A stretch of DNA of 63,996 nt, filler included, from an uncultured Methanosarcinales archaeon (GTDB lineage Archaea; Nanobdellota; Nanobdellia; Woesearchaeales; CAYXTQ01): NCBI GenBank assembly GCA_964608065.1. It is 6 parts of 6 records of this genome, joined end to end, with 100 filler letters (N's around TTAATTAATTAA, not from the genome) between each part and the next. Parts side by side here need not be neighbours in the genome. Positions count along the whole stretch, not along the records: positions 1 to 12,382 come from CAZSMA010000042.1; positions 12,483 to 24,808 come from CAZSMA010000043.1; positions 24,909 to 37,219 come from CAZSMA010000044.1; positions 37,320 to 49,489 come from CAZSMA010000045.1; positions 49,590 to 61,653 come from CAZSMA010000046.1; 1 more part is not named here. One strand, 5' to 3'. Of this stretch, positions 9,063 to 54,028 are shown in pieces; the first letter of the stretch is position 1, and each line of letters starts with the position of its first letter. Both the position numbers and the translations under genes were made by a program. The notes under the pieces were generated by a model that was not told the origin of the DNA, did no database searches, and saw only the letters and a list, made by a program, of their open reading frames with translations.

Positions 9063-9824
9063 TTACTTCAAACCCCTCAACCTCCTAAAATCATAGACCT
9101 TGTCTGCTACAATATAAACATTAAAATTGTCTAAGTTTTGCTGTAAGAATGGGCTTAGTGTTTTTTCCATCAAAAATCCTTCGGATTTTTGGGGTTCCGA
9201 AAATCTTTGATTTTCGAGAACTTTTGTTATGTCTGTTCCTTCTGTTACTAAATTAAAAGAAGGCTGTACAATTAATGTTTTTCTTTTGAACTTTCCTTTT
9301 AGAAAGCATTTGTATTTTTCGATTCTAGGGCTGTCTTTTAGAGTTATGGCAGGGTGTTCGTGGCCAATAATTATTATTTTACTCTTTTTTATTAATTTTT
9401 CAATGTCTTTGTTTAGTTTATCACCATGAATTACTAGAATATCTTTCAAAATAACATAATCCTTGACTTCAACATTTCTTTTCTTAGCTATTGGACCTAA
9501 AATATTGTCATGGTTGCCTTTTATCAAAATTACTTTTCCGTATTTTGCTAAGAAATCCAATAATTTTAGAGTGTGCCTCCATTCCTGCTCAGAAATTCTG
9601 CCAAACTCATGCTTTATGTCTCCATTGATGATTATGTTATTTACTTTTACTTGTTCTAATATTTTTTCTAGTCTTTTAATGATTTCAGTAAACTGGAACC
9701 TTGGAATTAAAATACCTTGTTTATTCAAGGATTCTTCAAAGCCAATATGTATATCACATATTATCAGGGTTTTATCTATCAACAATCCTAAATCTATGAT
9801 TTTGATGTTGTTGTGAATGTTCAT
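9063..9824 (-). CDS. Metallophosphoesterase (Lhr-associated MPE-like) with an 18-aa in-frame insertion
   Basis: DIHIG, NGDIKH, GNHD, HG, GHEHP motifs; directly downstream of lhr. Confidence 0.9.
   Translation of the reverse strand: MNIHNNIKIIDLGLLIDKTLIICDIHIGFEESLNKQGILIPRFQFTEIIKRLEKILEQVKVNNIIINGDIKHEFGRISEQEWRHTLKLLDFLAKYGKVILIKGNHDNILGPIAKKRNVEVKDYVILKDILVIHGDKLNKDIEKLIKKSKIIIIGHEHPAITLKDSPRIEKYKCFLKGKFKRKTLIVQPSFNLVTEGTDITKVLENQRFSEPQKSEGFLMEKTLSPFLQQNLDNFNVYIVADKVYDFRRLRGLK
9168..9221. repeat. Twin-hairpin element (family B) inserted in frame in the CDS
   Basis: CAAAAATCC-TTC-GGATTTTTG plus GTTCCGAAAATC-TTT-GATTTTCGAGAAC. Confidence 0.75.
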
Positions 9825-12382
9825 TTTTTCTTTCCAATCTTAGCTAATATATTATTGTGCATCTTTCTTATGAACTCTATTTTATCTTCTATCTTCATTA
9901 TGTCAACATAACCTTGTGTTATTAGGTTAAATGCAAATGGGGATGGTAAAGGTGTAGTTATTTTTTTTATTCTTATTTCTTTTTTTTCAATTTTTTCCAT
10001 TATTTTAATTGCATTATCTATATCCATCAGATCTTCAAGAACCTCTCTTCTTGCTTCTTTTAATATTACAAAATCAGGATCAATCCTTTTGACAGCACTC
10101 ATCAATATCATAGAAGAAACCTGCTGTCTTCCAACTCTTTTTCTTCTTCCTTTATAGTTTCTTAAAATCATTAAACTTCTTGTAGCACAATGCCTGAATC
10201 TTCTTTTCAAAACTTCTGTTTTTTCTATTGCCCTTTCACATACTGCTCTTAATTCTTTTGATTTTAGCAAATTCAATGCATTTAATGGATTTATTTTTTT
10301 TGGAGAGGTTATATAAAAACCATTATCATTTATTCCGATCTCAACATTAATATGCTGAGTTCTAGCTATCGCAAAAGCTAAAGCTCTTGACAAACAATCA
10401 TTGACTCTTCTTCCAAATAATATATGGAATAAATAATAAGTCTGCTTTCCATCATTATAGATTTCTACAACTATTTTTTTGTCAGAAGGAATCTGTGAAA
10501 AATTGAATTGTTCGTAGAAATATTCATACAATGCTTCTGCTCCGTTTTTGTCGATGTATAAATATTTATTAAGAAAATCTATGATTTCTTCTTTACTTTT
10601 TCTTTTTGTGAATAAATCATCCATATATCTTCTGAATCTGCCTATGTTCATACCTAAATCAAAGCTTAGTGGCAGCATTTCTGAATACCATGATGGAACA
10701 GTTGGTGGTCTATTTGCAGAAGCATTAACCTGAGCAACCATTCCTCTGCTGAACTTGAACTGATAAACCTGTCCTCCTAAGACAAAAATGTCACCAGGTC
10801 TAAGTCTTTCTAAGAAAGCTTCATCAATTGTTCCGACAGTTTGCTCTCCAACTTTAACTCTTACAGAGGTTTCATCTGGAATAGTTCCTATATTTGTCAT
10901 GTAGATAACTCTACCCATTCTTCCTTTTCTTCCTATCATTCCATTGTCTTTATCATGCCATATCTTAGCATAAATATGCCTGTCTTCCAAGCTTACATAT
11001 TTTCCTGAGAGATAATCAATTACATCCATAAAATCCTTTCTTGTTAGGTCTTTGTAGCAATAGCTTTGTTTTACTAATTTGAAAAGATCATCAATATGTA
11101 TGTTTTCTTCCAAAGCAATACCATCTATTTGTTGTGATAAAACATCTAAGCAGTTAGTTGGAATATGTATTTTGTCTATTTTTCTTTCTATTGCAGATTT
11201 TAACAAGCAGGCACATTCAACTAAGTCATCTCTTCCTAAAACAATAAGCCTTCCTTTAGTTGTGTCATGCAATTTGTGGCCTGATCTTCCAGTTCTTTGC
11301 AATGCTCTTGCTACAGATTTAGGGCTGCTTAATAAGATGACTAAATCAATATAACCAATGTCAATTCCTAATTCTAAACTTGTTGAACATACAACAACTT
11401 TTAGTTTTCCTTCTCTTAATCTGTTTTCAATATTTAATCTGTGTTTTTTAGATAAAGAACCATGGTGAGCACCGATGTTCTCTGTGTAGTTTTTTGGAAA
11501 CTTTTCCTTTAAGTGATGTACAACCCTTTCAGTTGCAGCCCTTGTATTAGTGAATATCAGAGTTGTCTTATGGTCTTGTATTAATTTATCAAGTAAAATA
11601 TACATGCTATTATGCATGTTTTCATGTGTTGTGTTAATTAGATCAGGCAATGGACTTAATACTTTCAGATCCAGTTCTTTAATAAACTGGACATCAACAA
11701 TTTTACAGTTTCTTATTTTATCGTTTTCATAACCTACTAGGTATTTTGCAATTTCTTCTAATGGAGCGACTGTTGCGCTTAATCCAACTCTTGTCAGATG
11801 AGGACTTAGTCTTGATAATCTTTCCATACTTAGATTTAAGTGAACTCCACGTTTGTTTTCAGCTAAAGCATGGACTTCATCTATAATGCACCATTCAACA
11901 TTTCTTAATAATTCTTTAAATTTTATAGAAGACAATACAATAGCTAATGATTCTGGAGTTGTTATTAAGATATGTGGAGGTTTTTTAAGCATTTTTTGCT
12001 TTTCAGAAGGAGTTGTATCTCCTGTTCTTACTGCTACCCTTATGTTTAGTTTTTTACCTGCTATATCTTCCATTTCTTTTAGAGGTTCTTTTAGGTTTTT
12101 TTCAATATCATTGTTCAATGCTTTTAATGGAGATATGTATATGCAGTATACTTTATCCTCTAGAATTCCTTTTTCACTTGAATCAATTAATTCGTTTAAT
12201 ATAGATAAAAAGCCTGTTAATGTTTTTGTTGCTCCTGTTGGAGCTGAAACAAGGATGTTAGACCTTGAATGAATTTCCATGACACCGTATAATTGCGGTA
12301 AAGAAAAAGTCTTAAATCTACTAAAAAACCATTTCTTTACTAATGGATTCAGTATATGTTTAACCTGTTCTTCATTGTAAGG
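9821..12382 (-). CDS. lhr: Lhr-family ATP-dependent helicase, 5' end cut by contig edge
   Basis: SPLKALNND, TTPESL, DEVH, SAT, HHGSLS, STSLELGIDIG, QRTGRSGH; frame open to the contig end. Confidence 0.93.
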   Translation of the reverse strand, partial: PYNEEQVKHILNPLVKKWFFSRFKTFSLPQLYGVMEIHSRSNILVSAPTGATKTLTGFLSILNELIDSSEKGILEDKVYCIYISPLKALNNDIEKNLKEPLKEMEDIAGKKLNIRVAVRTGDTTPSEKQKMLKKPPHILITTPESLAIVLSSIKFKELLRNVEWCIIDEVHALAENKRGVHLNLSMERLSRLSPHLTRVGLSATVAPLEEIAKYLVGYENDKIRNCKIVDVQFIKELDLKVLSPLPDLINTTHENMHNSMYILLDKLIQDHKTTLIFTNTRAATERVVHHLKEKFPKNYTENIGAHHGSLSKKHRLNIENRLREGKLKVVVCSTSLELGIDIGYIDLVILLSSPKSVARALQRTGRSGHKLHDTTKGRLIVLGRDDLVECACLLKSAIERKIDKIHIPTNCLDVLSQQIDGIALEENIHIDDLFKLVKQSYCYKDLTRKDFMDVIDYLSGKYVSLEDRHIYAKIWHDKDNGMIGRKGRMGRVIYMTNIGTIPDETSVRVKVGEQTVGTIDEAFLERLRPGDIFVLGGQVYQFKFSRGMVAQVNASANRPPTVPSWYSEMLPLSFDLGMNIGRFRRYMDDLFTKRKSKEEIIDFLNKYLYIDKNGAEALYEYFYEQFNFSQIPSDKKIVVEIYNDGKQTYYLFHILFGRRVNDCLSRALAFAIARTQHINVEIGINDNGFYITSPKKINPLNALNLLKSKELRAVCERAIEKTEVLKRRFRHCATRSLMILRNYKGRRKRVGRQQVSSMILMSAVKRIDPDFVILKEARREVLEDLMDIDNAIKIMEKIEKKEIRIKKITTPLPSPFAFNLITQGYVDIMKIEDKIEFIRKMHNNILAKIGKKK

Positions 12383-12482
12383 NNNNNNNNNNNNNNNNNN
12401 NNNNNNNNNNNNNNNNNNNNNNNNNNTTAATTAATTAANNNNNNNNNNNNNNNNNNNNNNNNNNNNNNNNNNNNNNNNNNNN
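12383..12482. other. Artificial contig linker
   Basis: N44-TTAATTAATTAA-N44, identical at five sites. Confidence 0.98.
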
Positions 12483-13474
12483 GGAAGATCCATTGAAACA
12501 TGGATTTTATCAATATCAATCTCAGCTCCAAAACCACCAGATTCACACAATTCAGAGCTAGCACACATTATACCACCAGCACCCATATCTTTAAATCCTA
12601 ATTTTATTCCTTTCTTCCTTGCTTCTTTGAAAACCGCTTCTGTTGACCTGATTAACATATTTTTTAAAAAAGGATCTGGAACTTGCACAGCACCTTTATT
12701 ATATTCCTCTTCTTGTTCATCTAAAACTAAACTAGCAAAAGCAGCTCCTCCAAACCCTGAGTTATCAGTTGCTTTTCCAACAATAACAATATCATAGCCT
12801 TCTGCATCCTCAGGAGCAGCCGAATGAATTATATCATCTTCTTTAATTAATCCTAAACAAGCAACATTTACTAAACAATTATCATCAAAACTATTATTAA
12901 AATAAACATCTCCTGCAATATTAGGAACTCCTAAAGGATTAGAATAACCTGCAATACCATCAACAACAGCATTTGCAACATATTTAACATAATTTTTATT
13001 TTTTCCATTTGGATCTCCAAATCTTAAAGGATCTGCTGTTGATATTACTCTTGCTCCCATACATAAAACATCTCTGACTATCCCTCCAATTCCAGTTGCA
13101 GCACCTTCATAAGGAACAACCTGAGATGGATGATTATGGCTTTCATGGGCTATAACAATTCCATACTGCTCTCCATCTACTTTTGCAAATTTTATAATTC
13201 CAGCATCTTCTTTTGGGCCTTGTATCACAGTTGGGCCTTCAGTCGGAAGTAATTTTAGGATTTCCCTGCTTGATTTATAGCTGCAGTGCTCACTCCATTC
13301 AATATTGAACATATGAATTTCAGTTAGGGTTGGATCTCTTCCAATTAATTTAACAATTTCTTTGCACTCTGAAACATTTAAAGCAAGATAATTCTTCTTA
13401 ATAAACTTCTGAATCTCAGCATCAGACATATTAGAAATAAGTACTGTTTCTATATCTACTTTATTTTCCCCCAT
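12483..13474 (-). CDS. purL: Phosphoribosylformylglycinamidine synthase subunit PurL, 3' truncated
   Basis: WSEHCSYKSS, ESHNHPS, GAATGIGGIVRD, VQVPDPF, DMGAGG. Confidence 0.95.
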
Positions 13475-13515
13475 AATCTTGATTAGGAAATAATCTGTTT
13501 AAATAGTTTGCGGTT

Positions 13516-14670
13516 TTAAATCAAATCACCAACAACATAAATAGAACCAGTAACTAAGATTAAATCTTTTTTCTTAGAAATCAACTTAGCATGTTTTAAA
13601 GCCTTCTTATTATCTTCAATTATTAAAAAATATTTATCAACTTCTTTTGCTAATATCCTTGGATCTAAAGCCCTGTAACTATTAGGTTTTGTTAATATCA
13701 CCTTATAAGCCAAAGGAACCAGCTGATTTAACATTGACTTGTAGTCTTTATCTTCCAGAGCTCCGAAGATCAATATTAATTTCCTATATCTTAAAGTTTT
13801 TATATAATCAATCAAAACCTTAACTGCACTAGGATTATGCGCGCAATCAAACAAAATATTATTTTTAAATTCAATCCTTCCACGCCAATTTATTTTTTTT
13901 AATGATTTTTTTATTATTGATGCTTTAATATATGTTATTTTTAATTGATTCAATAGATTAATTGTCTCTACTGCAGTATTTGCATTCTGAATCTGAAATT
14001 TTCCTTTAAGGTTAATTTTATAATTATAGTTTTTTGGGAAATAAACTTCAGAATTTTTAGATTTTGCAACATTTTTGATTACATCTAGAGCCTTACCTCT
14101 CGCTATAGTTATAACAGGAATTTTATTCTTAATAATTCCGCTTTTTTCATATGCAATTTTCTCAACTGTATTGCCTAAAAAAGCAACATGATCTAAACTA
14201 ATGCTTGTTATGACTGAAACCAATGGTTTGACAACATTTGTCGCATCTAACCTACCGCCCATTCCAACCTCTAAAATTAAAAAATCAGGATTTTTATCCT
14301 TAAAAAACAAAAAAGCCATTGCAGTTATAAACTCAAAATAAGTTTCATTTTTAGAATATTTCTTAACCTTATTGAAATATTTGATAAACTCTTTCTTTGA
14401 AATATTTTTATCATTAACTTTAAACCTTTCTTTAATATCTTTCAAATGAGGGCTTGTGTACATCCCAACCTTATAACCAGCTCCCTGTAATATAGAACTT
14501 AACATTGCACAAACACTCCCTTTTCCATTAGTTCCTGCAACATGTATTACTTTCAAACCCTTTTCAGGATTGCCTAATTTCTTCAGTATAGCTCTAATCC
14601 TGCTTAAACTAAAATGCGTCCCAAACATTTCTAATTTATTCAGATAATCAATAATCTGGTTATAGTTCAT
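13516..14670 (-). CDS. folC: Folylpolyglutamate/dihydrofolate synthase
   Basis: HVAGTNGKGS, YTSPHL, EVGMGGRLDATN, DCAHN, TGSIY. Confidence 0.95.
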   Translation of the reverse strand: MNYNQIIDYLNKLEMFGTHFSLSRIRAILKKLGNPEKGLKVIHVAGTNGKGSVCAMLSSILQGAGYKVGMYTSPHLKDIKERFKVNDKNISKKEFIKYFNKVKKYSKNETYFEFITAMAFLFFKDKNPDFLILEVGMGGRLDATNVVKPLVSVITSISLDHVAFLGNTVEKIAYEKSGIIKNKIPVITIARGKALDVIKNVAKSKNSEVYFPKNYNYKINLKGKFQIQNANTAVETINLLNQLKITYIKASIIKKSLKKINWRGRIEFKNNILFDCAHNPSAVKVLIDYIKTLRYRKLILIFGALEDKDYKSMLNQLVPLAYKVILTKPNSYRALDPRILAKEVDKYFLIIEDNKKALKHAKLISKKKDLILVTGSIYVVGDLI

Positions 14671-14708
14671 AAGAATAATAAGTTTAAATTGATTTAAATA
14701 ATTATTGA

Positions 14709-16118
14709 TTAATGCCTAAAAACCCTAAACCCAGTAAAAACCATTGACATATTGTGCTCATTAACAGCATCAATAACTTCCTGGTCCCTTATTGAACCAC
14801 CAGGTTGTATAACTCCAATAACTCCTGCTTGTGCTGCAACATCAATCCCATCTCTAAACGGAAAAAATGCATCAGAAGCCATTACACTTCCATGAGAATT
14901 TTTGCCAGCTTTAAAGCTNNNNNNNNNNNNNNNNNNNNNNNNNNNNNNNNNNNNNNNNNNNNNNNNNNNNNNNNNNNNNNNNNNNNNNNNNNNNNNNNNN
15001 NNNNNNNNNNNNNNNNNNTTTTTCATAGAATAATTATGAACTTCTTTGCTAATAGGGCCTGTCTCCAATATCCTCAGATTTTTCTTTTCTTTTAATAATT
15101 TTAAAGCATCTTTATCAAAACTTGGAGCTATAACACATTCTGCAAACAAAGGTCTTATATGCTTAGCAGTTTCTAAATTACATTTTCTGTTTAATGCAAT
15201 AATGCTTCCATAAGCTGCAGTTGTATCTGCTTCATGTGCTACTTTAAATGCATCTTCTAATTTTGATTTAGAAGCTACTCCACAAGGATTAGTATGTTTC
15301 ACTATTGAAGCAGTTGGTTCATCAAATTCCTTGATTAACTGGAAAGCAGCATCAATATCCATTATATTATTAAAAGAAAGCTCTTTTCCATGCAGCTGTT
15401 TGGAATTTGTAACACAAGTTTCAGTTATTCTTCCGCATGAATAAAAAGCTGCTTTTTGGAAATGATTTTCTCCATAGCGTAAGTCCCTTATCTTCTTCAG
15501 TGGGATATTAAATAACTCAGGAAACAAACATTCCTCATAATTATCAAGAGTATACATATGGAAAAATGAATCATATCTTGTAGTATTTTCAAAGACTTTT
15601 GAAGCTAATAAAATTCTTTTTTTAAAAGATAAATCTCCTTTATTTAGTTCTCTTAAAATCATATTATAATCACGAGGATCAATTACAGGAATAACATCTT
15701 TGAAGTTTTTTGCGGCTGCCCTTATCATTGTAGGGCCTCCAATATCAATGTTTTTGATAACATCATTAAGTTTTACATCAAGTTTCTGAACAGTTTCTTC
15801 TAATGGATAAAGATTAACAACAACTAAATCAATCAAATCTATATTTAGTTTTTTCAGCTGCTGCATATGTTTTTTATTAGATCTTACAGCTAATATTCCA
15901 GCATGTATCTTTGGATGTAAAGTTTTAACTCTATTATCTAAAATCTCTGGAAAACCAGTATAATCTTCTACTTTTATAACAGGAATATTATTCTTCTTCA
16001 ACAAAGCTGCAGTCCCTCCTGTTGATAATATTTCAATACCTAATTTATGCAAACCTTTAGCAAACTCTACAATTCCTTCTTTATTATATACTGAGATTAA
16101 TGCTTTCTTTATTTTCAT
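14709..16118 (-). CDS. purH: Bifunctional AICAR formyltransferase/IMP cyclohydrolase (contains a scaffold gap)
   Basis: [40 protein letters not shown]. Confidence 0.95.
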
Positions 16119-29114: not shown

Positions 29115-29283
29115 TGGAATTTTGTGTGTTCAAAAACCACTGTTGTAAGTGGAATTTTGAGTCATGAAAAACAAAGTTTTTCAGGATGCCGGAAATCTTT
29201 GATTTCCCAGCATATCAAAAACCACTTTTATTACTTACTTCTTATAAAATTATGTTATCTGTTTGTAGGGATGGTTTTTGACA
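29115..29283 (+). repeat. Family A element carrying a nested family B twin hairpin (29163-29213)
   Basis: TGGAAT..TCAAAAACCAC..GTGGAATTT[insert]TCAAAAACCACTT..GGTTTTTGACA. Confidence 0.8.
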
Positions 29284-35470: not shown

Positions 35471-35590
35471 TGTTTCTTTCTCTTCCTATANNNNNNNNNN
35501 NNNNNNNNNNNNNNNNNNNNNNNNNNNNNNNNNNNNNNNNNNNNNNNNNNNNNNNNNNNNNNNNNNNNNNNNNNNNNNNNNNNNNNNNNN

Positions 35591-41172: not shown

Positions 41173-42305
41173 AAAAAGGAGTAATCCAATCAGAAATGTT
41201 AAGGTACATATTAATTGCAGTAGTCACATTCATAATACTCACATTCTCAATATTAGTAATCAAAGGCTGCAGTGATAGAAGAAGAGAAGCAGACCTTATT
41301 GGATTCAAAAGCGATATAAGCAGCAGCATAGAAGTAATTGCAACAAGGGCTGGCTCTATAGACAGGGAAAACTACATATTACCTGATAATGTAGATTCAA
41401 TCTGTTTTTTAGATATAAATAAAAAAACTGAAATATTAGAGACACCTTTAGTTGATAACTATCTATTCATAAAAAACAGTCTTGAGGATCAAGTAGAAGA
41501 TAATGTGTTTTTGCTCTCAAATGATTTATTAGTAGACACATTCAGCGAGGAAGATCTTTGTTTTGAAAACTATCCATATTACCTATGTGTTGAAACCCCT
41601 CATTCAATTCTTGATATCATGCTTGAAGGCCTTGGAAAATGCGCTACAATACACACTAATTACACTAAGTTTATTTCAGATAACAAAAGAGACATGGATA
41701 AATACGATTTGCTTGTAGATGGAGGATTTTTAGTAAAGGATTCTGAAGACCATGAAAACTATAGAGATACATTACAGGTAATACCTTTGGCTTTTGTCAA
41801 CAATAAGACAGCATACAAACAATACCCTTATCTGGCATATTATGGAAACCTTGATGACAGCAAAATAGAAACTATTATGGACAGAAAAAGCATAGACACT
41901 GTAGTCATATTCAGGAATAACCCTTACAATGAATATAATATTGATGCAAGCCACTTGGTTATTGATGAAACCTTAGATAATTACCTAAGCTATTGGACAA
42001 TAATCTATGATGTGACTGTGGTAGCATATGACAACTCTAATGGAGCTTTGATATCATCCTTATTTGCATCTTTCACAAACACTCCAATAATCTTTATTAA
42101 CAGTTCTAATCTTGACCAATACAAGGATTTACTTGATGAAAAAACTATTAATGTAATAGATGAAGATGACATAGATCAGAATGTTATAGATTACTTACAA
42201 AATTCAACAAATGATATAACTGTCAGATATTTTGAATCCAATGATCTGAGATTAATGAATCAGAACAGAATTCTAAGATTAAAATCAAACATAATTATAC
42301 CTTAA
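41169..42305 (+). CDS. Hypothetical protein with pilin-like class III signal peptide
   Basis: MKKG|VIQSE followed by a hydrophobic helix. Confidence 0.6.
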   Translation: MKKGVIQSEMLRYILIAVVTFIILTFSILVIKGCSDRRREADLIGFKSDISSSIEVIATRAGSIDRENYILPDNVDSICFLDINKKTEILETPLVDNYLFIKNSLEDQVEDNVFLLSNDLLVDTFSEEDLCFENYPYYLCVETPHSILDIMLEGLGKCATIHTNYTKFISDNKRDMDKYDLLVDGGFLVKDSEDHENYRDTLQVIPLAFVNNKTAYKQYPYLAYYGNLDDSKIETIMDRKSIDTVVIFRNNPYNEYNIDASHLVIDETLDNYLSYWTIIYDVTVVAYDNSNGALISSLFASFTNTPIIFINSSNLDQYKDLLDEKTINVIDEDDIDQNVIDYLQNSTNDITVRYFESNDLRLMNQNRILRLKSNIIIP

Positions 42306-42829
42306 GGTATTTTACGTAATTGTCTTATGAGATAGTTCTCTTCAGAAGAATAATCCAACACTTCTTTCTTTTGGCCTAAAGAAATAGTTTCTTTTGGAGT
42401 TTCTGTTATAAAACCTCCAACATTCTGTGTCTGCTCTTTTAGTTTTAGTTCTGCTGTAGACATATCCTCTTCTGACACTTGTTGAGGAACCCATTCTAAC
42501 TTTAATCCATCATTCTCTGTTCTTGGAATAATACTTATAACAAAATGAGCGAATTTCTGTCCTGCTGCTATTCCGTTCTGCACAATAATATTAGTTCCCT
42601 GTATCTTTAAAGTTTCAAAAAGTATTGAGCTTAACTTATTTGTAATATTAAATAAAGGCCCTAGTTCAAAATCTGGAATCTGCTCAATAATTGGATAATG
42701 TTTCTTAGGAACAACCCATACATGGCCTAATGAACTAGGTTTTTCAGGCAGCATAACATATACTAATTCATCTTCATATAGCTTGTTCACTTTGTTATTG
42801 ATAAATTCACATATCTTGCAGTCCATCAT
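42302..42829 (-). CDS. HIT-family protein with degenerate histidine triad
   Basis: CKIC, GHVWVVPKKH, QNGIAAGQKFAHFVISI. Confidence 0.85.
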   Translation of the reverse strand: MMDCKICEFINNKVNKLYEDELVYVMLPEKPSSLGHVWVVPKKHYPIIEQIPDFELGPLFNITNKLSSILFETLKIQGTNIIVQNGIAAGQKFAHFVISIIPRTENDGLKLEWVPQQVSEEDMSTAELKLKEQTQNVGGFITETPKETISLGQKKEVLDYSSEENYLIRQLRKIP

Positions 42830-42858
42830 TTGTTAAAATTCACCTCCTACTTTAGTAG

Positions 42859-42975
42859 GTACCGAAAATGCGTAACATTTTCCAGTACGTAAATTTTTAT
42901 CCAAAGAAATGCGTAGCATTTCTTGGACACCGGAAATCTCTGATTTCCCAGTGCATTGAAAATCTTGGATTTTCA
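42859..42975. repeat. Cluster of four family B hairpins
   Basis: GAAAATG/CATTTTC, AGAAATGC/GCATTTCT, GGAAATC/GATTTCC, TGAAAATC/GATTTTCA. Confidence 0.8.
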
Positions 42976-43695
42976 TTTTTCTATACCTAAAACCTTGGCA
43001 ATATCATCTAAGTCAACTTCTTCTTTTTCCATCTTAGTTTCTTTTTTTTTTTTTTGTTCTTTCTCCTTGGGTTTTTCCTTTATTGGTTTCTCTTTCTTTT
43101 CTTCTTCAAACTCTGCTTCCATCACTCTGGTTTTTATTTTCTCCTTATTGTTTTCTTCCTTTTTGTTGTTTTCATTGTTATTGCCTAATACTTCCTTAAT
43201 CTTTTTCACTAATCTTTTCTGCACTGTCTCTATATCTTTTTTATCTACTTTATTCTCAGGAATGTCTAATCCGACATTGTCATCATCATACCTTGGGATA
43301 ATATGTATCATAAAGTGCTGTGCTTTTTGTCCTGCTGCAACACCATTAGCAACAAAAACAGTAGTTCCCTGGCATTGCAAAGCTCTTAACACAGAATGAC
43401 TTAATGCTTTTGTAACCATAAACAAATGATCTACAATCTCCTCTGGGATCTGAGGCAGTATTGTATAGTGTTCTTTCGGTAAAAGAAGTAAATGCCCCGT
43501 ACTGGCAGGGTTAATATCCATTATAGCTAATGCCTTGTCATCTTCATATATTTTTTTAGAAGAAGTTTTTCCTTCCACAATATGGCAGAATATACATTGC
43601 TTTTTCTGGAACTCTTTCAACTCCTCTGGTGACATATTCTCTAGCTTCTTTTGCAGTTCCTGTGCCTGCTCTGGAGTTATATTACCAAGTTCCAT
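42973..43695 (-). CDS. HIT-family protein
   Basis: CIFC, DINPASTGH, NGVAAGQKAQHFMIHIIPR. Confidence 0.88.
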   Translation of the reverse strand: MELGNITPEQAQELQKKLENMSPEELKEFQKKQCIFCHIVEGKTSSKKIYEDDKALAIMDINPASTGHLLLLPKEHYTILPQIPEEIVDHLFMVTKALSHSVLRALQCQGTTVFVANGVAAGQKAQHFMIHIIPRYDDDNVGLDIPENKVDKKDIETVQKRLVKKIKEVLGNNNENNKKEENNKEKIKTRVMEAEFEEEKKEKPIKEKPKEKEQKKKKETKMEKEEVDLDDIAKVLGIEK

Positions 43696-43730
43696 AATCT
43701 GATAGAAAGATTGGGTTTATTTAAAGTTAT

Positions 43731-43900
43731 CGAAAACACTTGAAAATCTCGAATAGGATTTTCAGTGTCCCGGAAATTTAGTTTAAATTTCCCAGGACTT
43801 TGTTTTCGGAAACTTTAAGCTTGAAAATAGAATATATTTTCATTGGTTTGAAAACTTAGTTTTCAAATCCACGCAAATCCTTGATTTGCTTTGTTTAAAG
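43731..43900. repeat. Cluster of family B hairpins
   Basis: TGAAAATC/GATTTTCA, GGAAATTTA/TAAATTTCC, TTTGAAAAC/GTTTTCAAA, GCAAATC/GATTTGC. Confidence 0.75.
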
Positions 43901-43948
43901 CTTACTAAAACAACAAACTTTAAATAGTAATTATATTTAATTTATAGT

Positions 43949-44215
43949 ATGAAAAAAGAGGTTGAAGTATATTTAGAGATAGAAAAAAGCAGGATTAAAA
44001 GAGAAAAAGCTAAAATCGTTCTGAACAAATCTCTATTCCTATATGTTGCATTTCTTATTGTAGGTGTTTTTGGTTTTGTTAATAATTATATTGACCCAAC
44101 ACAGCTTAATATGCTTATAATTGTAGGTATCTTTGTATTATTTATAGGAACATTCCCATATGTTTTGACAACAACAAGAGAAGAGAAAAAAATAAATGAA
44201 ATGTTAAAACAATGA
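43949..44215 (+). CDS. Small two-TM hypothetical protein
   Basis: 88-aa ORF with two hydrophobic helices. Confidence 0.65.
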   Translation: MKKEVEVYLEIEKSRIKREKAKIVLNKSLFLYVAFLIVGVFGFVNNYIDPTQLNMLIIVGIFVLFIGTFPYVLTTTREEKKINEMLKQ

Positions 44216-44355
44216 AATTCTACCATTCTTTAGAATGGTGGAATGAATTGTGCTCAAAAACCACTAAAATGGTGGAATTTCAAGTGTCAAAAACCACTTG
44301 TTTTTTGTAGCACAAAAGGATTATACCACCAATCACAGATTGGTGGTTTTTGACA
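44207..44355 (+). repeat. Dispersed ~150-bp structured element (family A)
   Basis: AAACAATGAAATTC...GTGCTCAAAAACCA...GTGGAATTTCAAG..TCAAAAACCACTT...GGTGGTTTTTGACA. Confidence 0.85.
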
Positions 44356-44357
44356 AA

Positions 44358-44792
44358 ATGAGAAAAAAGGCTATAGCTCCATTAGTATCAACAATTGTTT
44401 TAATACTTTTTGCAGCAGGATTAGGTATTATAGTGATGAACTGGGGCTCTACAGCAACCTATGCAATAAAAACAATACAAGAATGTGAAAAATCAAGCTT
44501 AAACATTATAGAAATCAATGAAAAAAAAAGTGCCTGCTTTGAAGGTAATAAATTTTATTTCACTGCAGAAAACAATGGAGAAGCAACTATAGATTCCTTA
44601 AAGATCAGTTTTATTGGAGATGATGTTTACCAGGTAAATTTATATGAAAAATATTTTGTAGGAAACATAAAAAAAAATAATGTTGAATATGAAGATATTG
44701 GGCCAATTCTAAAAGTAAAAATAGCTCCTTTAGTTGGTGGAGAAATATGCGCAAAACAAAGCACAAGCATAGAAAACATACAAGCGTGCTGA
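44358..44792 (+). CDS. Archaeal type IV pilin-like protein
   Basis: MRKKA|IAPLVSTIVLI class III signal peptide. Confidence 0.8.
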   Translation: MRKKAIAPLVSTIVLILFAAGLGIIVMNWGSTATYAIKTIQECEKSSLNIIEINEKKSACFEGNKFYFTAENNGEATIDSLKISFIGDDVYQVNLYEKYFVGNIKKNNVEYEDIGPILKVKIAPLVGGEICAKQSTSIENIQAC

Positions 44793-46357: not shown

Positions 46358-46561
46358 TTTTTTATAACAAAAATTAAATACTAATATTCTATAAATAGTG
46401 ATTATTGCCAACGTCGCATAACCTGGTCGTGCAGCTGTCTCGAAAACAGNNNNNNNNNNNNNNNNNNNNNNNNNNNNNNNNNNNNNNNNNNNNNNNNNNN
46501 NNNNNNNNNNNNNNNNNNNNNNNNNNNNNNNNNNNNNNNNNNNNNNNNNATAGTGATTATT

Positions 46562-47814: not shown

Positions 47815-47855
47815 TTTAGTAGGATTTAAATATTAAATATATAAATTTACTGATT

Positions 47856-49046: not shown

Positions 49047-49048
49047 AT

Positions 49049-49366: not shown

Positions 49367-49436
49367 ATTAAGTTTGGTGGGGAGTATATATTTAAACTTT
49401 TCTTAGACTTTAGATTAAATTAAAATAAAAATAATA

Positions 49437-49472
<36 letters not shown>

Positions 49473-49589
49473 AAAAAAAATAATATATTNNNNNNNNNNN
49501 NNNNNNNNNNNNNNNNNNNNNNNNNNNNNNNNNTTAATTAATTAANNNNNNNNNNNNNNNNNNNNNNNNNNNNNNNNNNNNNNNNNNNN

Positions 49590-49789
49590 ATGTATTTTAA
49601 ATCTGGTTCTTTATTATAAGGGTGAAAAAAAGCATGGTATTCTAAATTAAATGTAACTCCCCCTTCAGGTGTTCTGCTTCTGACATTATTAGTTACTTCT
49701 ATCTCAATTTTAGCCCTTGTTTTATTAGAAATCACTTGTTTTGCAAGATCATCAAGTAAATCATCTATATCTTGATATTCTTTTGCCAT
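49590..49789 (-). CDS. Hypothetical protein, 3' truncated
   Basis: ATG with upstream TATA box; runs off the contig end. Confidence 0.45.
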
Positions 49790-49853
49790 AATCCTACAAA
49801 ACGAATTACTATTATTTAAATCTTTCTATTATTTAGTTACTATAAAGTAACAC

Positions 49854-50234
49854 TTAAGAAATAAGCACAGCATTAACAGTCCCATCCTGTCCAGGCCTTG
49901 AAGTAACCTTTGCCTTACCTTTCTCTGTATCTATTACAGTACCTTTTGTAATAATATTTCTTCTTACATAGTGTCTGTTAGATGGGCTTTCTACTACACT
50001 TTTTATCTTAGCCTTAGAATAAGTCTTGCTCTTCTTATCAAGTAAATTAGCAAATTCAGCATAAAATAATCTGTGCTTTACATTTTTTCCTCTGGCTTTA
50101 ATATTCTTCAATTTATTTTTACCTATCTTAGTAAGAGAAGGAAGATTACCTTTTTCATACTGTCTTTTCTTTCTATAATGTTTATATCTTCCACCAGTGG
50201 AAGTTCTCTTAGATCTGTATTGTGTCAATACCAT
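49854..50234 (-). CDS. rps8e: 30S ribosomal protein S8e
   Basis: RSKRTSTGGR...RRNIITKG...VTSRPGQDGTVNAVL; true start at MVLTQY. Confidence 0.96.
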   Translation of the reverse strand: MVLTQYRSKRTSTGGRYKHYRKKRQYEKGNLPSLTKIGKNKLKNIKARGKNVKHRLFYAEFANLLDKKSKTYSKAKIKSVVESPSNRHYVRRNIITKGTVIDTEKGKAKVTSRPGQDGTVNAVLIS

Positions 50235-50349
50235 TTTCCAACTTAGAAATTTTAAAGTATTTAAAAATGCTTCGGTTTTAAATAAAATAAAATAGTAACC
50301 TTTATATATATGATTAAAATAATAAAGTTTTTTCGCGGGGTGTAATATT

Positions 50350-50577
50350 ATGGTTGAAACATCAAGACCTTTAGACGCATTAAACAGTGCAAGAGGCAAA
50401 AGAGTTATAGTAGAACTGAAGAATGGAAAACAACTTATGGGTATGTTAAAAGCATTTGATATACACATAAACGTTGTATTAGAACAAGCAGAAGAGCATG
50501 AGAACGGAGAATTAAAGAGAAAATTAGGAGTAGTATTTATAAGAGGAGACACAATAACTATCATATCACCTGAGTAA
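50350..50577 (+). CDS. Sm-like archaeal protein (Lsm/SmAP)
   Basis: RPLDAL, LKAFDIHINVVL, IRGDTI; upstream of rpl37e as in other archaea. Confidence 0.93.
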   Translation: MVETSRPLDALNSARGKRVIVELKNGKQLMGMLKAFDIHINVVLEQAEEHENGELKRKLGVVFIRGDTITIISPE

Positions 50578-50579
50578 AA

Positions 50580-50687
50580 ATGTCAAAAGGAAATCATTCA
50601 AATTTTTACAAAAATTTGATAAAAAGAAAGTCAAGTGCTACATTTGCTTCGCAAAGTAGCACGGAGTGATTAAGATGTCAAAAGGAA
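50580..50687 (+). mobile_element. 82-bp hairpin-rich insert flanked by a 13-bp direct repeat of the rpl37e start
   Basis: ATGTCAAAAGGAA at 50580 and 50675; closing stem AATCATTC/GAGTGATT. Confidence 0.6.
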
Positions 50688-50839
50688 CTCCTTCTATGGG
50701 TAAAAAGAGCGGTAAGAAGACACATATATACTGCAGAAGATGCGGAAAAAGAACTTATCACAAGAGACATAAGACTTGCAGCAGCTGCGGTTATGGAAAA
50801 TCCTCAAGACTAAGAAGCTACAATTGGCAAAAGAAATAA
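50675..50839 (+). CDS. rpl37e: 50S ribosomal protein L37e (not in ORF track)
   Basis: [24 protein letters not shown]...[20 protein letters not shown]. Confidence 0.96.
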
Positions 50840-50867
50840 AAACAAAAGAATAATTCTATATTATATA

Positions 50868-51636
50868 ATGGCTCCAAAAGTTTTAGTAGGATGTCCAACT
50901 GCAGATTTATATGATTTTTGTCTGGACGACTACAGCAAAGCTGTAAAGAATCTAACATATTCTAATTATGATATCATGTTAGTCGATAATTCCAAGGATG
51001 ATACTTACATAAATAAAATAAAAGACAAAGGATTGAACGCAATAAAATCAGAACATCATGAAAGCGCTGTTAAAAGAATTGTAACCTCTAGAAACCTATT
51101 AAGAAAATATTTTCTGGAAAATAATTATGATTATCTGTTAAGCCTCGAGCAGGATGTAATTCCGCCGAAAGAGGTTATACAGCAATTAATGAAACATAAT
51201 AAAAAGATTATCTCAGGAATATATTATATGCCAATAAAAGTTGCTGAAAACACAATTAAATTCAAACCAGTTTTATGGGATTTTCCGACTGAAGAACAAT
51301 GGCAAGAAACTTTAAAGGATCCAGAAATGAAAGAACAAATGAAAAAAAAAGGGGTCACAAGCAAAGAAGGTATGAGACATCAGTTTACTGCTGAAGAAGT
51401 AAAAAAAAATAAAATTATCAAAGTCAAGACATGCGGTGTTGGCTGTGTTTTGATTCACAGGGATGTCCTAGAAAAAGTCAAATTTAGATATAAACCAGGA
51501 GTCAAATGTTATGATGATGTTTTATTTTTGCATTGATGCAAGGAAAAACAATTTCAAAGTATATGCAGACACAAGCATTAAGTGCAAACATTTATTTTTA
51601 AAAAAACCATGGCATTGGAAAGACATAAAGTTTTAA
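50868..51636 (+). CDS. GT2-like glycosyltransferase with apparent poly-T frameshift near 51525
   Basis: VDNS, LEQDV, GVGCVLIHR; continues in another frame as FCIDARKNNFKVYADTSIKCKH. Confidence 0.8.
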
Positions 51637-51696
51637 TAATAAAAAATAAAAAGCTTTTTATAATCATCATTAGTTCATATATAAAATTCCCTTAAT

Positions 51697-52026
51697 GCGG
51701 GGGTGCCGGAGCGGCCAATTGAAAATCGAAGATTTTCAAAGCGTCAAAAAATCTACGATTTTTGGACCAAACGGGACAGGCTTAGGTAAGTAACAGGTCT
51801 GATGAGTCCAATTGGACTATGACTTGAAGATACCTGTTGGCTTAGACAAGAGCGTAGAGAATGTCTGCTACAAAAACTACGCTTTTGGAGCAGTGCCTAC
51901 GAGGGTTCGAATNNNNNNNNNNNNNNNNNNNNNNNNNNNNNNNNNNNNNNNNNNNNNNNNNNNNNNNNNNNNNNNNNNNNNNNNNNNNNNNNNNNNNNNN
52001 NNNNNNNNNNNNTCCCTTCCCCCGCA
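51697..52026 (+). tRNA. tRNA-Leu(TAG) with three visible introns (51719-51770 D loop; 51787-51831 at 37/38; 51846-51893 variable arm) and an assembly gap in the T loop
   Basis: Spliced form GCGGGGGTGCCGGAGCGGCCAAACGGGACAGGCTTAGGACCTGTTGGCTTAGTGCCTACGAGGGTTCGAATCCCTTCCCCCGCA folds as a type II tRNA. Confidence 0.88.
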
Positions 52027-52041
52027 TATTTCTTTCTAAGT

Positions 52042-52155
52042 TAAATTCGTGGCTTTAGCCTAAGAATTTAGTAGAAACACGAAAAAATACGAAGTATTTT
52101 TTGTGTCTCAGAAATCTTTGATTTCGGAGGGCTTTGCGTGGTGCTTGAGCATTAC
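52042..52155. repeat. Cluster of family B-like hairpins downstream of tRNA-Leu
   Basis: AAAAAATAC-GAA-GTATTTTTT and GAAATC-TTT-GATTTC. Confidence 0.65.
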
Positions 52156-52201
52156 ACCATCTATAGAAACATTTATAAATATAAGGATATTTTTATATCC
52201 T

Positions 52202-52801
52202 ATGAACCAAATATTAATACAAAAAATAGTTGAAATGGAAGATTCAGTAGTTCCTACTCTATTCAAGCCAGTGCAGTTTGGTATATTAAAGAAGCTTAAT
52301 AAAGGGACGGAGTTGAATGAAAATGAAAAAAGATATCTTAGAGGAAAAATGAAAGATAAATTAAATTTATTAGATGAGTTTATAGAAGGGAAAAAGGAAA
52401 TTAAAGTTAATTATATTACATTCTTAAGTAGCTTAAGCTCTTATTATATAACAGGTTTAGAAGCCGTAAAATATAATGGTTATGGATGGTATTTTGACAC
52501 TAAGGTTATTGAAGTCATAAACACAAAAATAGAGGGAAAATTGGTGATTGGAGATAAAACACTTAAGTCGATTAGGGTCAAATCTATTACTAACTCTGAT
52601 TATACAATAGATAAAAAAACAGGATTAAAATATGCAACAAATGAACAGATACTTAAAGATACAAAAATAACTAAAAATGGATATACAAAGTCAGTATGGA
52701 AACAACTGCTTTCAAGATATGGAAAATTATTTTTAAGATCTTATAGGAAATACAAAATTTTAAAACCAATACACATAGATTATTCAAAATATGGTGTATA
52801 A
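52202..52801 (+). CDS. Hypothetical protein, putative AbiEi-like antitoxin partner
   Basis: Abuts the AbiEii gene; YYITGLEA motif. Confidence 0.55.
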   Translation: MNQILIQKIVEMEDSVVPTLFKPVQFGILKKLNKGTELNENEKRYLRGKMKDKLNLLDEFIEGKKEIKVNYITFLSSLSSYYITGLEAVKYNGYGWYFDTKVIEVINTKIEGKLVIGDKTLKSIRVKSITNSDYTIDKKTGLKYATNEQILKDTKITKNGYTKSVWKQLLSRYGKLFLRSYRKYKILKPIHIDYSKYGV

Positions 52802-53494
52802 ATGACAAGAATAATACCTATTTTAGAAGAATTCCTTAAAGAAATGGAAAAAGATAATCCATATAAACTAGTTCTGAAAGGCGGAACTGCTTTATCTTTG
52901 TTTTATCTAAACCACCACAGGGAATCAGAAGACCTAGATTTTGATTCAGATAAATCAAATTTAGAAAAGTATAAAGAAATTGAAAAATATTTTATTAATA
53001 TTTTAAATAAATTAAAAGAAAAAAGGATTATTAAATATTTTAAAAAAAAGAAAAGTGGGTTAGCTGCCACAAATAGATACCATATGAAACTTGAACTAGA
53101 AACTTACAAAACTTTTCAAACAAAAATAGACGTAGATTTTGTTGAGTTGCCTAAGAAATTAGACCAAAAAGGTAATCTATATCTTTACACTAAAGAAAGA
53201 ATATTCATAACAAAAATAGTCACATTTATCAACAGAAAAGAGTTTAAAGACCTGTATGATATTTCTAAATTGTTATCTAAAATTGATGAAAAGTTTTTCA
53301 TTCGTAACCAAAATGTTATTAATTTGCTAGACAATATTATCAAAATAACTGAAAAAGAGGATATATTAAGATTATATAAATCAGCATTTAGAAATGTTGA
53401 TCTAAGATTCAAGGATCTTAAACAATCTCAGCTTGATAGTTTTATAACTAAGTTAATTAGAAATTTAAGAATCTTTAAGAGTAAGATTAGCTAA
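52802..53494 (+). CDS. AbiEii/AbiGii-family nucleotidyltransferase toxin
   Basis: LKGGTAL...HRESEDLDF...K...R...KDLYDI. Confidence 0.9.
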   Translation: MTRIIPILEEFLKEMEKDNPYKLVLKGGTALSLFYLNHHRESEDLDFDSDKSNLEKYKEIEKYFINILNKLKEKRIIKYFKKKKSGLAATNRYHMKLELETYKTFQTKIDVDFVELPKKLDQKGNLYLYTKERIFITKIVTFINRKEFKDLYDISKLLSKIDEKFFIRNQNVINLLDNIIKITEKEDILRLYKSAFRNVDLRFKDLKQSQLDSFITKLIRNLRIFKSKIS

Positions 53495-53582
53495 AAAAAA
53501 AAGAAAAATTATTAAAGGATATAGTCTTGTAATATTAACATTAGTGTTTTACAAGCAATAATTGGGAAACGCATACGATTAT

Positions 53583-53606
53583 AAGGGTTGTTCCCTTCTC
53601 CCGCAT
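53583..53606 (+). repeat. Degenerate copy of the tRNA-Leu 3' end (att-like)
   Basis: TCCCTTCTCCCGCAT versus TCCCTTCCCCCGCAT, preceded by AGGGTT. Confidence 0.7.
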
Positions 53607-53759
53607 CATTTTATCTACCATAATATAATTCATACTATTTAAAAGTAATAACATCCCAAAAAAGCCTGTTTTGCCAAAATTCAAAGGAATTAAGCTCGTC
53701 GATAAGTATACCCTAATGTTAATTTGCGAAAGATTTATAAATGATACATCTTACTAAAA

Positions 53760-54028
53760 TCCGTATATAGGGTTAATACTCTACAAAAAGAGTTCATGCT
53801 CTAAAAAAGAGGCAGCGAAAATCAAAGAGATTTCCTGGTCTTCTTTTTGCAAGCAAAAAGAGGTGATGACAACATATATGTTGTATAATCGCAAGATTTA
53901 AATATTAAGACAAAATTTTGTTTTTAAAAAAAAAAAAAGAGGGAGATACTATATCTCTCATATTTTGTTTTTGTGGAAAATTTCCACAAAAGTAAAGATA
54001 GCACAAAAACACGGAGGTGTTTAGATAA
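53760..54028 (+). promoter_or_regulatory. Long multi-hairpin 5' leader of the S-layer gene
   Basis: TTTATAAA near 53734; series of hairpins; GGAGGTG SD before the ATG. Confidence 0.55.

Follow-up and report, generated by a model that had tools for sequence, protein, structure and literature searches.

Hairpin modules of a Woesearchaeales genome as probable small non-autonomous mobile repeats

The stretch of DNA analysed here (hereafter the window; 63,996 nt) is made of the joined contigs C42, C43, C44, C45, C46 and C124 of assembly GCA_964608065.1, a Woesearchaeota-type metagenome-assembled genome (G000; 1,401,893 bases, 131 contigs, 31.1% GC, completeness 96.8%), and its sites are therefore not one locus. 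Runs of N separate the contigs, with four further 100-N gaps inside them. Distributed across the window are copies of a short hairpin, family B, which occurs between genes, within a protein-coding gene and within a tRNA gene, and which is the subject of this analysis. The sole relative of the same genus is a sister species (G001), compared over 675 kb (58 of its 180 contigs) and 71–77% identical to G000 in DNA; the other sampled relatives belong to other families of the same order, Woesearchaeales.

Family B and its sites in the window

The family-B unit is a hairpin of 26–30 nt. Its upper stem is closed by G/C and has the A-tract first (GAAA(A)TN..NA(T)TTTC), and hence reads alike on both strands; the loop usually has 3 nt; and a 1x2 internal loop or bulge separates the upper stem from a lower one of 3–5 bp, whose sequence is free but co-varies. 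Units occur singly, in head-to-tail or inverted arrays with a spacing of 24–29 nt, or within composite cassettes. The original prediction had listed GAAA(A)T-stem hairpins at seven places in the window, all of which do hold them, and the four hairpins that it quoted with a C opposite CA are exact: ATGC at 29186–29213, GTAC at 42860–42889, CAC at 42928–42953 and GTCC at 43767–43798. Measured against dinucleotide shuffles, the RNA folds are strong at 9160–9230 (minus strand; z −4.9), 29125–29230 (z −3.3) and 42855–42980 (z −5.7 and −6.2 on the two strands), and weak for the isolated tRNA piece (z −1.9) and the imperfect palindrome at 53795–53870 (z −1.1).

One site lies in a conserved protein. 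Positions 9167–9220 (minus strand) are a 54-nt in-frame insert in the gene at 9063–9824 (minus strand), which matches Pfam Metallophos and adjoins an Lhr helicase gene (Lhr-associated metallophosphoesterase, MPE). Its two hairpins are GTTC-TC-GAAAATC/GATTTTC-G-GAAC and CAAAAATCC/GGATTTTTG, and its border can be shifted by 1 nt. The 18 residues that it adds are absent in 8/8 aligned homologues, and G001 shows a clean 54-nt gap with the empty site reading AAAAGAAAATC. A wider set of 80 loci gave 78 relatives with aligned flanks, of which 77 do not have the insert; the exception, locus L100, has 60 nt with two other family hairpins at that codon, suggesting that a tolerant or preferred site received an insertion a second time. 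The G001 orthologue (L013, contig C103, about 2236–2330) has an AT-rich extra segment of its own of ~60–90 nt, not hairpin-like and at another place. A comparable case lies outside the window on contig C24, where a 111-nt in-frame insert is present, relative to G001, in the C-terminal tail of ribosomal protein L15. Both coding inserts are multiples of three and stop-free. As a separate matter, two L15 genes are found on different contigs, at window 62782–63363 (C124), directly followed by SecY, and at C24:14868–15458; they differ in their lysine/glutamate-rich tails, and the presence of two may be due to a true duplication or to a contig from another strain or a contaminant.

The most elaborate arrangement is a cassette at 42826–42976 (minus strand), between two HIT genes, previously described as a cluster at 42859–42975. 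On the minus strand it consists of ATGA, an TGAAAATC hairpin, the CAC-C/CA hairpin, a 12-bp GAAATGC hairpin, the GTAC-C/CA hairpin, CCTAC..GTAGG with GGAGGTGA, then AATTTTAACAA and a final ATGA. The left TGA is the stop of gene 42973–43695 and the right ATG the start of gene 42302–42829; in G001 the two HIT genes overlap in a single ATGA and the array of ~140 nt is missing. There are eight such cassettes in G000, this one included, and six in the fetched part of G001, at other loci. In gene sense they begin with ATGA-AAAT and a TGAAAATN..NATTTTCA hairpin, continue with zero to several further family-B hairpins, and end with an A-first hairpin that has GGAG in its loop, followed by AACAA-ATGA; in every cassette this last hairpin stands 5 nt before the ATG. 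The terminal 15-mer occurs eight times in G000, six times in G001 and once or twice in 9 of 149 other genomes, its backwards control never.

All 14 cassettes follow an ATGA in one and the same orientation. Empty sites with a single ATGA were seen for three out of three clean G000-filled sites (C45, in the window; C60:4903; C16:3037) and four out of four clean G001-filled ones. An inserted cassette leaves the upstream gene with its stop, the left TGA, and the downstream gene with its start, the right ATG, which then follows the GGAGG of the cassette. The G001 cassette at C13:1874 had no interpretable G000 site and was set aside, and that at C18:4312, a 206-nt family-B cassette, corresponds to window 44215–44358, where G000 has elements of another type, family A. 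A second module, CCAAC-GAAG-GTTGG plus TGC-C-GAAAANN..NNTTTTC-RA-GCA, is present in eight copies with constant borders, and in three copies whose loop contains GGAGG the end coincides exactly with an ATG, that of L23, of an L15-family gene (both ribosomal-protein genes) and of an unannotated gene on C30. At these junctions G001 has no spacer (L15) or just an A- or T-run before the start (the other two).

The remaining copies in the window are mostly intergenic. At 29165–29213 (plus strand) two hairpins, TGAAAAAC/GTTTTTCA and ATGC-C-GGAAATC/GATTTCC-CA-GCAT, stand directly 3' of a family-A-type hairpin (about 29130–29162), and a 12-nt direct repeat, TCAAAAACCACT (29130–29141 and 29215–29226), brackets the whole. 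The original prediction had the pair (as 29163–29213) nested inside family A; it does adjoin the family-A hairpin, and adjacency is all that is seen. Paralogous copies of the pair lie on C50, C47 and C11, and neither collinear flanks nor an orthologous site was found in the fetched part of G001. The GAGCAT end of family A (GTCAAAAACCAC .. GTGGTTTTTGAGCAT) is regularly in direct contact with family-B hairpins; family-A elements lie at window 29130–29162 and 44215–44358 and at C20:8531–8600 and C21:15510–15596, those at 44215–44358 (plus strand; CAAAAACCAC..GTGGTTTTTG) being placed between two ATGA. Families A and B give the impression of belonging to a single modular system.

An intergenic cluster of at least five hairpins, among them GTCC-C-GGAAATTTA/TAAATTTCC-CA-GGAC, TGAAAATA.., TGAAAAC.. 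and GCAAATC/GATTTGC, occupies a divergent promoter region at 43731–43900. Synteny is broken here, with no collinear flanks found in the fetched part of G001; the module at 43820–43903 is 84–88% identical to other G001 loci, the flanking genes 71–77%. Just 3' of the tRNA gene discussed below, 52077–52130 (plus strand) holds two hairpins, ACAC-G-AAAAAATAC/GTATTTTTT-GTGT and CTCAGAAATC/GATTTCGGAG, a module with 86–90% identity to copies on G001 contigs C18 and C47. The imperfect member at 53808–53865 (plus strand), AAAAGAGGCAGC-GAAAATC..GATTTCC-TGGTCTTCTTTT, belongs to a separate subfamily; it is 89% identical over 64 nt to C3:12617–12680 and also matches C49, whose copy is absent at the orthologous G001 site. 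These two sites form the left and right edges of a 1.8-kb segment (52030–53855) between the tRNA gene and an S-layer gene, which contains an unannotated open reading frame (ORF; 52103–52801) and an AbiEii nucleotidyltransferase toxin gene (52802–53494). The segment is absent in G001, where the tRNA and S-layer genes are about 170 nt apart. At the start of C42 (window 180–1287) lies a HEPN and nucleotidyltransferase gene pair, a typical toxin–antitoxin-like module.

The tRNA-Leu(UAG) gene at 51697–52026 (plus strand) has four interruptions: a D-loop insert (51717–51768), a canonical intron (51787–51831), a variable-arm insert (51838–51900) and an N run in the T-loop (51913–52012). The D-loop insert, of 52 nt with a border shiftable within repeated CCAA, carries two family-B hairpins, TTGAAAATC-GAA-GATTTTCAA and GTC-A-AAAAATC-TAC-GATTTTT-G-GAC. 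Hairpins in a tRNA gene had been predicted, and they are there, in the D-loop insert and not in the canonical intron to which the term tRNA intron would point. The unspliced gene was missed by both ARAGORN and Rfam. We removed in silico the 52-nt D-loop insert, the 45-nt canonical intron, the interior of the 63-nt variable-arm region and the T-loop gap, upon which ARAGORN called tRNA-Leu(tag) in 60/60 variants, compared to 0/60 with the D-loop insert kept; the variants differ in the trimming of the variable arm, whose borders are provisional. The G001 orthologue behaves alike, and has a T-loop intron of 33–34 nt at the exact position of the G000 N run. Its D-loop intron measures only 15 nt (GGCC..GGCC) against 52 nt in G000, and hence the hairpins would have been added to an intron that already existed; in this one instance, as judged by comparing the two sequences, they enlarged it and did not create it. 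As to the proposal that such hairpins may seed or expand bulge–helix–bulge (BHB) introns, one case of expansion (15 to 52 nt) speaks for its second half, and seeding stays conjectural. No BHB could be drawn by hand at the borders of the D-loop insert, and isolated D-arm folds gave other pairings; splicing of this insert would be a necessity if the tRNA is to form.

No other tRNA-Leu(UAG) was found in G000. Further tRNA-associated copies were sought around 29 T-arm motif sites, none of which has a family hairpin within 260 nt (the window tRNA itself escapes the motif through its N run). With intron search, ARAGORN reports 18 tRNA genes in G000, 10 of them with introns, and probably many others are hidden by non-canonical introns or unassembled. 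The canonical 37/38 intron (51787–51831; L026 about 936–979) is almost identical in G000 and G001, the other inserts being different; it contains a C-box-like CTGATGA and may encode a small guide RNA. The 100-N gaps lie at window 14919–15018, 35491–35590, 46450–46549 and 51913–52012, the third ending 11 nt before tRNA-Ser(CGA) at 46561. Assembly breaks seem to fall at or near tRNA genes, perhaps owing to repeats in introns or leaders.

Abundance, covariation and turnover

Across G000 we found 169 GAAA-stem hairpins with a stem of at least 6 bp, 110 with at least 7 bp and 62 with at least 7 bp and a 3-nt loop. The corresponding means in 20 dinucleotide shuffles made in 1-kb blocks are 40.9, 11.4 and 3.2 (maxima 52, 17 and 7). 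The copy frequency is accordingly not that of shuffled sequence, the comparison on which the original prediction had made its case depend: 110 perfect-stem hairpins stand against 11.4. Among all 7-bp stems in the genome (n = 1599), A7/T7 is the commonest (241), followed by GAAAATC/GATTTTC (33). The exact hairpin GAAAATC-N3-GATTTTC occurs 26 times in G000, 30 times in G001 and 16 times in G102, and at least once in 64 of the 151 genomes of the order (62 of 149 without G121 and G132). The same word read backwards is a fair control of equal composition, because the A-run arm comes first on both strands; it occurs 0 times in G000 and is present in 1/151 genomes.

The lower stem behind the upper stem is real. 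With the 3' flanks permuted among 137 hairpins as the null, lower stems of at least 3 bp number 22 against 3.8 expected at offset (1,2) and 19 against 3.0 at offset (2,1), and those of at least 4 bp at any offset number 43 against 11.6 +/- 3.5. Among 54 oriented hairpins with a 1x2 loop, 18 have C opposite CA and the rest T/TA, C/AA, T/TT, C/CG or A/TC-type loops; common to them is one extra base on the 3' side, which gives polarity to an otherwise symmetric hairpin. By subfamily the lower stems are CAC/GTG, ATGC/GCAT, GTCC/GGAC, GTAC/GTAC, ATAC/GTAT, TGC/GCA and AACC/GGTT. Co-variation of the stems, which had been claimed from four hairpins, is evident in copies retrieved without regard to pairing. 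Among the eight found by the motif GG[TC]GCCGAAAA alone, seven keep perfect pairing, with variable stem dinucleotides CC/GG (three), TC/GA (two), TT/AA and GC/GC, and one is degenerate; compensatory changes likewise appear in the first hairpin of cassettes retrieved via a word more than 30 nt away. In alignment A5, 97.1% of positions are paired and 9 of 12 pairs show double changes, figures that are partly circular as members were chosen by pairing. Multi-module copies share 72–97% identity. A search of the whole window against Rfam returned only tRNA-Ser matches, and a permissive search of the arrays at 42700–44000 gave three matches, all at 13.7–21.4 bits against gathering scores of 50–120.

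A genome-wide count with a covariance model, the check that had been proposed, yielded at least 50 copies in G000 at E ≤ 0.01 and at least 98 matches at E ≤ 1 (150 candidates scored). The model, R1, has 30 positions and 12 pairs and was built from 27 sequences (22 from G001, three from the window and two from other G000 loci). At E ≤ 0.001 it matches 83/150 genomes of the order (81/148 without G121 and G132), with the highest counts in G001 (39), G000 (27), G139 (21), G102 (19), G016 (12) and G020 (12). In a phylum-wide sample 56/150 genomes match (G212 with 29, G247 with 17), and besides G000 54/55 matching genomes are of the same order, the exception being G198; how many of the 150 come from outside the order is not stated in the table. 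Within this one order family B is widespread, and a few lineages show bursts of it.

Within G000, 138 hairpins divide into 95 intergenic ones, 12 touching ORF ends and 31 in crude ORFs, many of the last within 60 codons of the start of frames that are over-extended (crude coding sequence makes up 84% of the genome). They form 98 arrays, 66 of one unit, 25 of two, six of three and one of four. Tandem junctions hold 46 arrays, divergent ones 16 and convergent ones three, with 33 in ORFs or at contig edges. Convergent spacers account for 14% of spacer length and 17% of junctions, so ~9 or ~11 of the 65 intergenic arrays would be expected there, and the finding of three indicates that arrays favour the upstream side of genes, unlike terminators. 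Polarity shows a weak bias relative to gene direction, with 25 opposite and 12 the same (copies that are not independent); the split is 16/7 at tandem junctions and 9/5 inside ORFs, and arrays contain inverted neighbours.

Comparison with the sister species points to turnover of these copies. Collinear flanks in G001 were available for 33 G000 arrays, and in 21 of these the G001 interval is at least 25 nt shorter. Among 18 candidates aligned with a single gap, 17 have a net insert of 29–203 nt, and flanks are at least 76% identical in eight; C72:4255 gave a negative length difference. Modules are 83–93% identical between the species, neighbouring genes 71–77%. Groundwater contigs from four public runs of three studies, ~85% alike and possibly from related strains or species, were compared with the 18-kb contig C21. 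Here two alleles replace C21:15596/15604–15687 by 28 or 20 letters, the 28-letter allele keeping the downstream part without the two hairpins; the small indels listed on C21 lie at hairpin arrays in 5/5 cases, four inside and the fifth 15 nt before hairpin 18428. Presence/absence polymorphism, as the original prediction had anticipated among strains, is seen both between G000 and G001 and among the metagenome contigs. A metagenome scan with the 662-aa C21 protein and 10-kb flanks gave 80 loci, the best at 66% protein identity, and no strain-level empty sites.

Movement of the modules and competing explanations

These observations make it very likely that family B is a mobile selfish repeat, and on balance we favour the more specific view that it constitutes a superfamily of mobile DNA repeats of the Woesearchaeales (DPANN), modular, non-autonomous and very small. 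The original prediction of a REP-like non-autonomous element selected for structure holds in that the element is non-autonomous and its structure is kept; the likeness to REP goes no further than analogy. Surviving copies are found where they are least harmful, at gene junctions, in in-frame tolerant protein segments and in an existing tRNA intron. On the proposed mechanism, copying of the modules would take place in DNA, with single-stranded hairpins as the likeliest form, through a structure-specific enzyme acting in trans on them, in the manner of IS200/IS605–PATE or REP elements, and copies would insert 3' of a short target word. The copy in the tRNA gene would then be removed with the intron by the splicing endonuclease, and copies in coding sequences would be translated. 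What favours an enzyme acting on single-stranded hairpins is that the bulge confers polarity, that the ends are not inverted copies, that single modules show no duplications and that the ATGA sites are orientation-specific. That a hairpin-specific trans-acting enzyme moves the modules is nonetheless a tentative proposition, to which we give somewhat less than an even chance.

The search for such an enzyme supplies much of what weighs against this view. As had been stated, no transposase is present in the window (none among 60 ORFs scanned). G000 as a whole has one Y1 (IS200) gene (C2:28184–28543), one reverse transcriptase (RT) gene (C86) and four DDE_Tnp_1 genes (C128, C80, C22 and C90), and no mobilising gene linked to the hairpins was found among them. 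The suggested HUH/TnpA-REP or RT gene flanked by copies did not materialise, as the Y1 gene is single-copy and flanked by unrelated GC-rich terminal hairpins, and neither the RT gene nor the four DDE genes have adjacent family hairpins (there is one generic hairpin on C80). GC-rich IS200-type hairpins also accompany the five further Y1 genes examined (G001, G102, G143, G073 and G067). A REP-associated tyrosine transposase (RAYT) was considered and dropped; a family array ~200 nt downstream of Y1 exists in G001 alone and was judged incidental. In G000 neither TnpB nor rve was found, a BLAST search with the IS element returned only itself, and an all-against-all blastp of 1259 ORFs revealed no multi-copy transposase. 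The IS200-type element of G000 (C2:27780–28750; L014 about 1100–2070; a 193-aa frame) adjoins a putative tRNA gene with an insert. Across the order Y1 is present in 56/151 genomes, and the exact hairpin occurs in 28/56 with Y1 and 36/95 without, a weak tracking among genomes that are not independent; of the eight genomes with at least five exact hairpins, five have Y1 and G008, G017 and G132 have no match.

Other points bear on the inserts themselves. By inspection of the 54 oriented hairpins and the aligned inserts, single modules have neither a conserved word in their flanks nor a target duplication. As the cassettes were selected with an ATG-containing word, the left ATGA, the A after the ATG (14/14) and the empty sites are what counts as independent evidence; the two ATGA could equally be a 4-bp target duplication made by a DDE-type enzyme, or a product of selection. 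Many insert junctions are fuzzy at the 71–77% identity of G001 and the comparison extends over 58 of 180 contigs. Finally, both species keep the array at C16:6220 in place, with a conservation above that of its flanks, which suggests host use of at least some copies. At C16:6207–6250, directly after a stop codon, lies a hairpin with a long outer stem, AAAATGGG..CCCCATTTT, in which only the loop changes in G001, a candidate domesticated copy.

That no partner enzyme was found also lends weight to a serious, if rather unlikely, rival, in which the hairpins spread without a transposase through template switching, microhomology-mediated copying or gene conversion by host replication and repair, triggered by A/T-run arms and by replication stalled at hairpins. 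Several features fit it: an array on C73 is a mosaic of two modules, one resembling C21:5744 and the other C21:18428, junctions are placed in A-runs or in short homology to a module arm (e.g., ATGAA versus TGAAAATC), indel polymorphisms are concentrated in arrays, and insert lengths range over 29–203 nt. It leaves unexplained, however, the constant 40-nt borders of the CCAAC..AGCAT module (eight copies), the fixed orientation and exact ATGA sites of the 14 cassettes, and the conserved polarity of the 1x2 loop. A different reading, for which we see a smaller probability still, makes the hairpins host-used RNA elements, displaying a Shine–Dalgarno-like GGAGG between cistrons, protecting mRNA ends or marking processing sites, with mobility secondary. 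The GGAGG-loop copies that end at the ATG of L23, the L15-family gene and the unannotated gene, the GGAG-loop hairpin of every cassette, the location of 62/65 intergenic arrays at tandem or divergent junctions, and the one array conserved in both species are all consistent with it. Yet polarity relative to transcription is mixed (16/7 and 9/5, as given above) with inverted neighbours, 21/33 comparable sites are shorter in the sister species, and a tRNA D-loop and protein-coding sequences also hold copies, for which such roles would be senseless.

Very improbable, in our estimate, is a spread at the RNA level, as BHB introns that move by reverse splicing and reverse transcription and are spliced out wherever they insert. 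The D-loop pair must indeed go for the tRNA to fold, G000 has one RT gene, and with 18 recognisable tRNA genes, 10 of them intron-bearing, unusual introns are probably common. Against this, the D-loop intron is older than its hairpins and allows no BHB to be drawn at its borders, the coding inserts are stop-free multiples of three as expected if translated, the 29 T-arm motif sites have no other hairpin within 260 nt, and the RT gene has no family hairpins nearby. The last alternative, chance palindromes of an AT-rich genome, retains a negligible probability. A GC content of 31% and the prevalence of A7/T7 (241/1599) would favour it, and the listed hairpin inside a coding sequence at C16:4855 does look like an accidental palindrome and was rejected; but it is refuted by the ten- to twenty-fold excess over dinucleotide shuffles, by the backwards control (0 in 150/151 genomes) and by the lower-stem permutation, and the co-varying lower stems and the 72–97% identity of multi-module copies likewise oppose it.

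Significance and relation to known repeats

Few known genomes are as small and as densely packed with genes as those of Woesearchaeales, and despite this compactness more than half of the Woesearchaeales genomes sampled carry the repeat, some lineages with dozens of copies. Its insertions have changed gene junctions, separating overlapping genes and setting a new putative ribosome-binding hairpin before the downstream gene; they have added peptide segments to conserved proteins, a ribosomal protein included; and they have enlarged tRNA introns, which helps explain the mere 18 tool-visible tRNA genes of a 97%-complete genome. The repeat probably also breaks assemblies at such sites. For annotation, family-B hairpins should not be taken for riboswitches, terminators or small RNA genes. 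They offer a system in which to ask how non-canonical archaeal tRNA introns grow and how tiny structured repeats move without an obvious transposase. We also entertain, as a speculative and rather improbable reading, that they represent a transposase-independent or new-enzyme mobile system of DPANN archaea, in which an ATGA start cassette with a putative ribosome-binding hairpin and the build-up of tRNA introns are due to the same modules. If so, the cassette would recognise and split the ATGA overlap, as a mobile element adapted to the operon junctions of ultra-compact genomes, and the build-up of introns from the modules would provide a concrete, testable route for the growth, perhaps the origin, of archaeal tRNA introns.

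At the level of titles and abstracts, the literature gave no description of such repeats in DPANN archaea. Compared by analogy, family B appears to work like several known kinds of repeat, while failing defining features of each. Repetitive extragenic palindromic (REP) sequences, with their bacterial interspersed mosaic elements (BIME) and REPINs, are imperfect palindromes of bacteria mobilised by RAYTs (Y1 HUH). Like family B, they are imperfect palindromes of 20–40 nt with a polarity-giving bulge, mostly intergenic, in direct and inverted clusters and in tens to hundreds of copies, with no terminal inverted repeats and with single modules that lack target duplication. Family B differs in its AT-rich stems (those of REP are GC-rich), its archaeal host, the lack of a Y1 gene flanked by repeats, the copies in frame in genes and in a tRNA intron, and the absence, by inspection of the 54 oriented hairpins, of a conserved 5' tetranucleotide (GTAG-like).

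Palindrome-associated transposable elements (PATEs) are transposase-free derivatives of IS200/IS605. The cassettes resemble them in that hairpins lie near the ends, which are not inverted repeats, and that insertion may be tied to a short word and to one orientation, and the 9 nt between the last hairpin and the terminal ATGA resemble the spacing between right-end hairpin and cleavage site in IS608. In contrast to PATEs, the hairpins of the resident IS200 are of another kind, with what to the eye is a TTAC-like word close to the left one; TnpB was not found, and the number of modules per element varies freely. Miniature inverted-repeat transposable elements (MITEs), for example the Correia elements of Neisseria and the MITEs of Sulfolobus, are likewise short non-autonomous repeats able to carry expression signals, and the cassettes are flanked by a 4-nt direct repeat, ATGA, which may be a target duplication. 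It is confined to the cassettes, no such repeat being seen at single-module inserts; the ends of the eight cassettes and the eight CCAAC..AGCAT modules are not inverted copies, a parent IS with matching ends was not found, and the units, at 26–54 nt, are much smaller.

The copies within genes recall the Rickettsia palindromic elements (RPE), which Ogata et al. 2000 reportedly presented as selfish DNA in protein-coding genes. The parallel lies in palindromic inserts, in frame and presumably translated, in conserved proteins (MPE, the L15 tail, L100), and in RNA genes too; compared by description, RPEs are bacterial and 100–150 nt long, unlike the inserts of 54–111 nt made of 26–30-nt modules that are mostly intergenic here. 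Mitochondrial double-hairpin elements exemplify the hairpin repeats of organelles, in which a start-codon cassette is not known to us. Palindromic repeats of Volvox organelle DNA (PMC2670323) are a further instance. Like family B, organelle repeats are short AT-rich hairpins of compact genomes without a transposase, placed singly or as doublets in spacers, introns and sometimes genes; they differ in their organelle hosts and have no sequence relationship to it.

The closest parallel to the tRNA copy concerns introns. Fujishima et al. 2010 are said to have reported transposing tRNA introns in Thermoproteales, which share with the present case related sequences at non-canonical tRNA intron positions and intron-rich tRNA genes. 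There the intron itself moves, within tRNA genes, whereas here a mostly intergenic module has been added to an existing intron.

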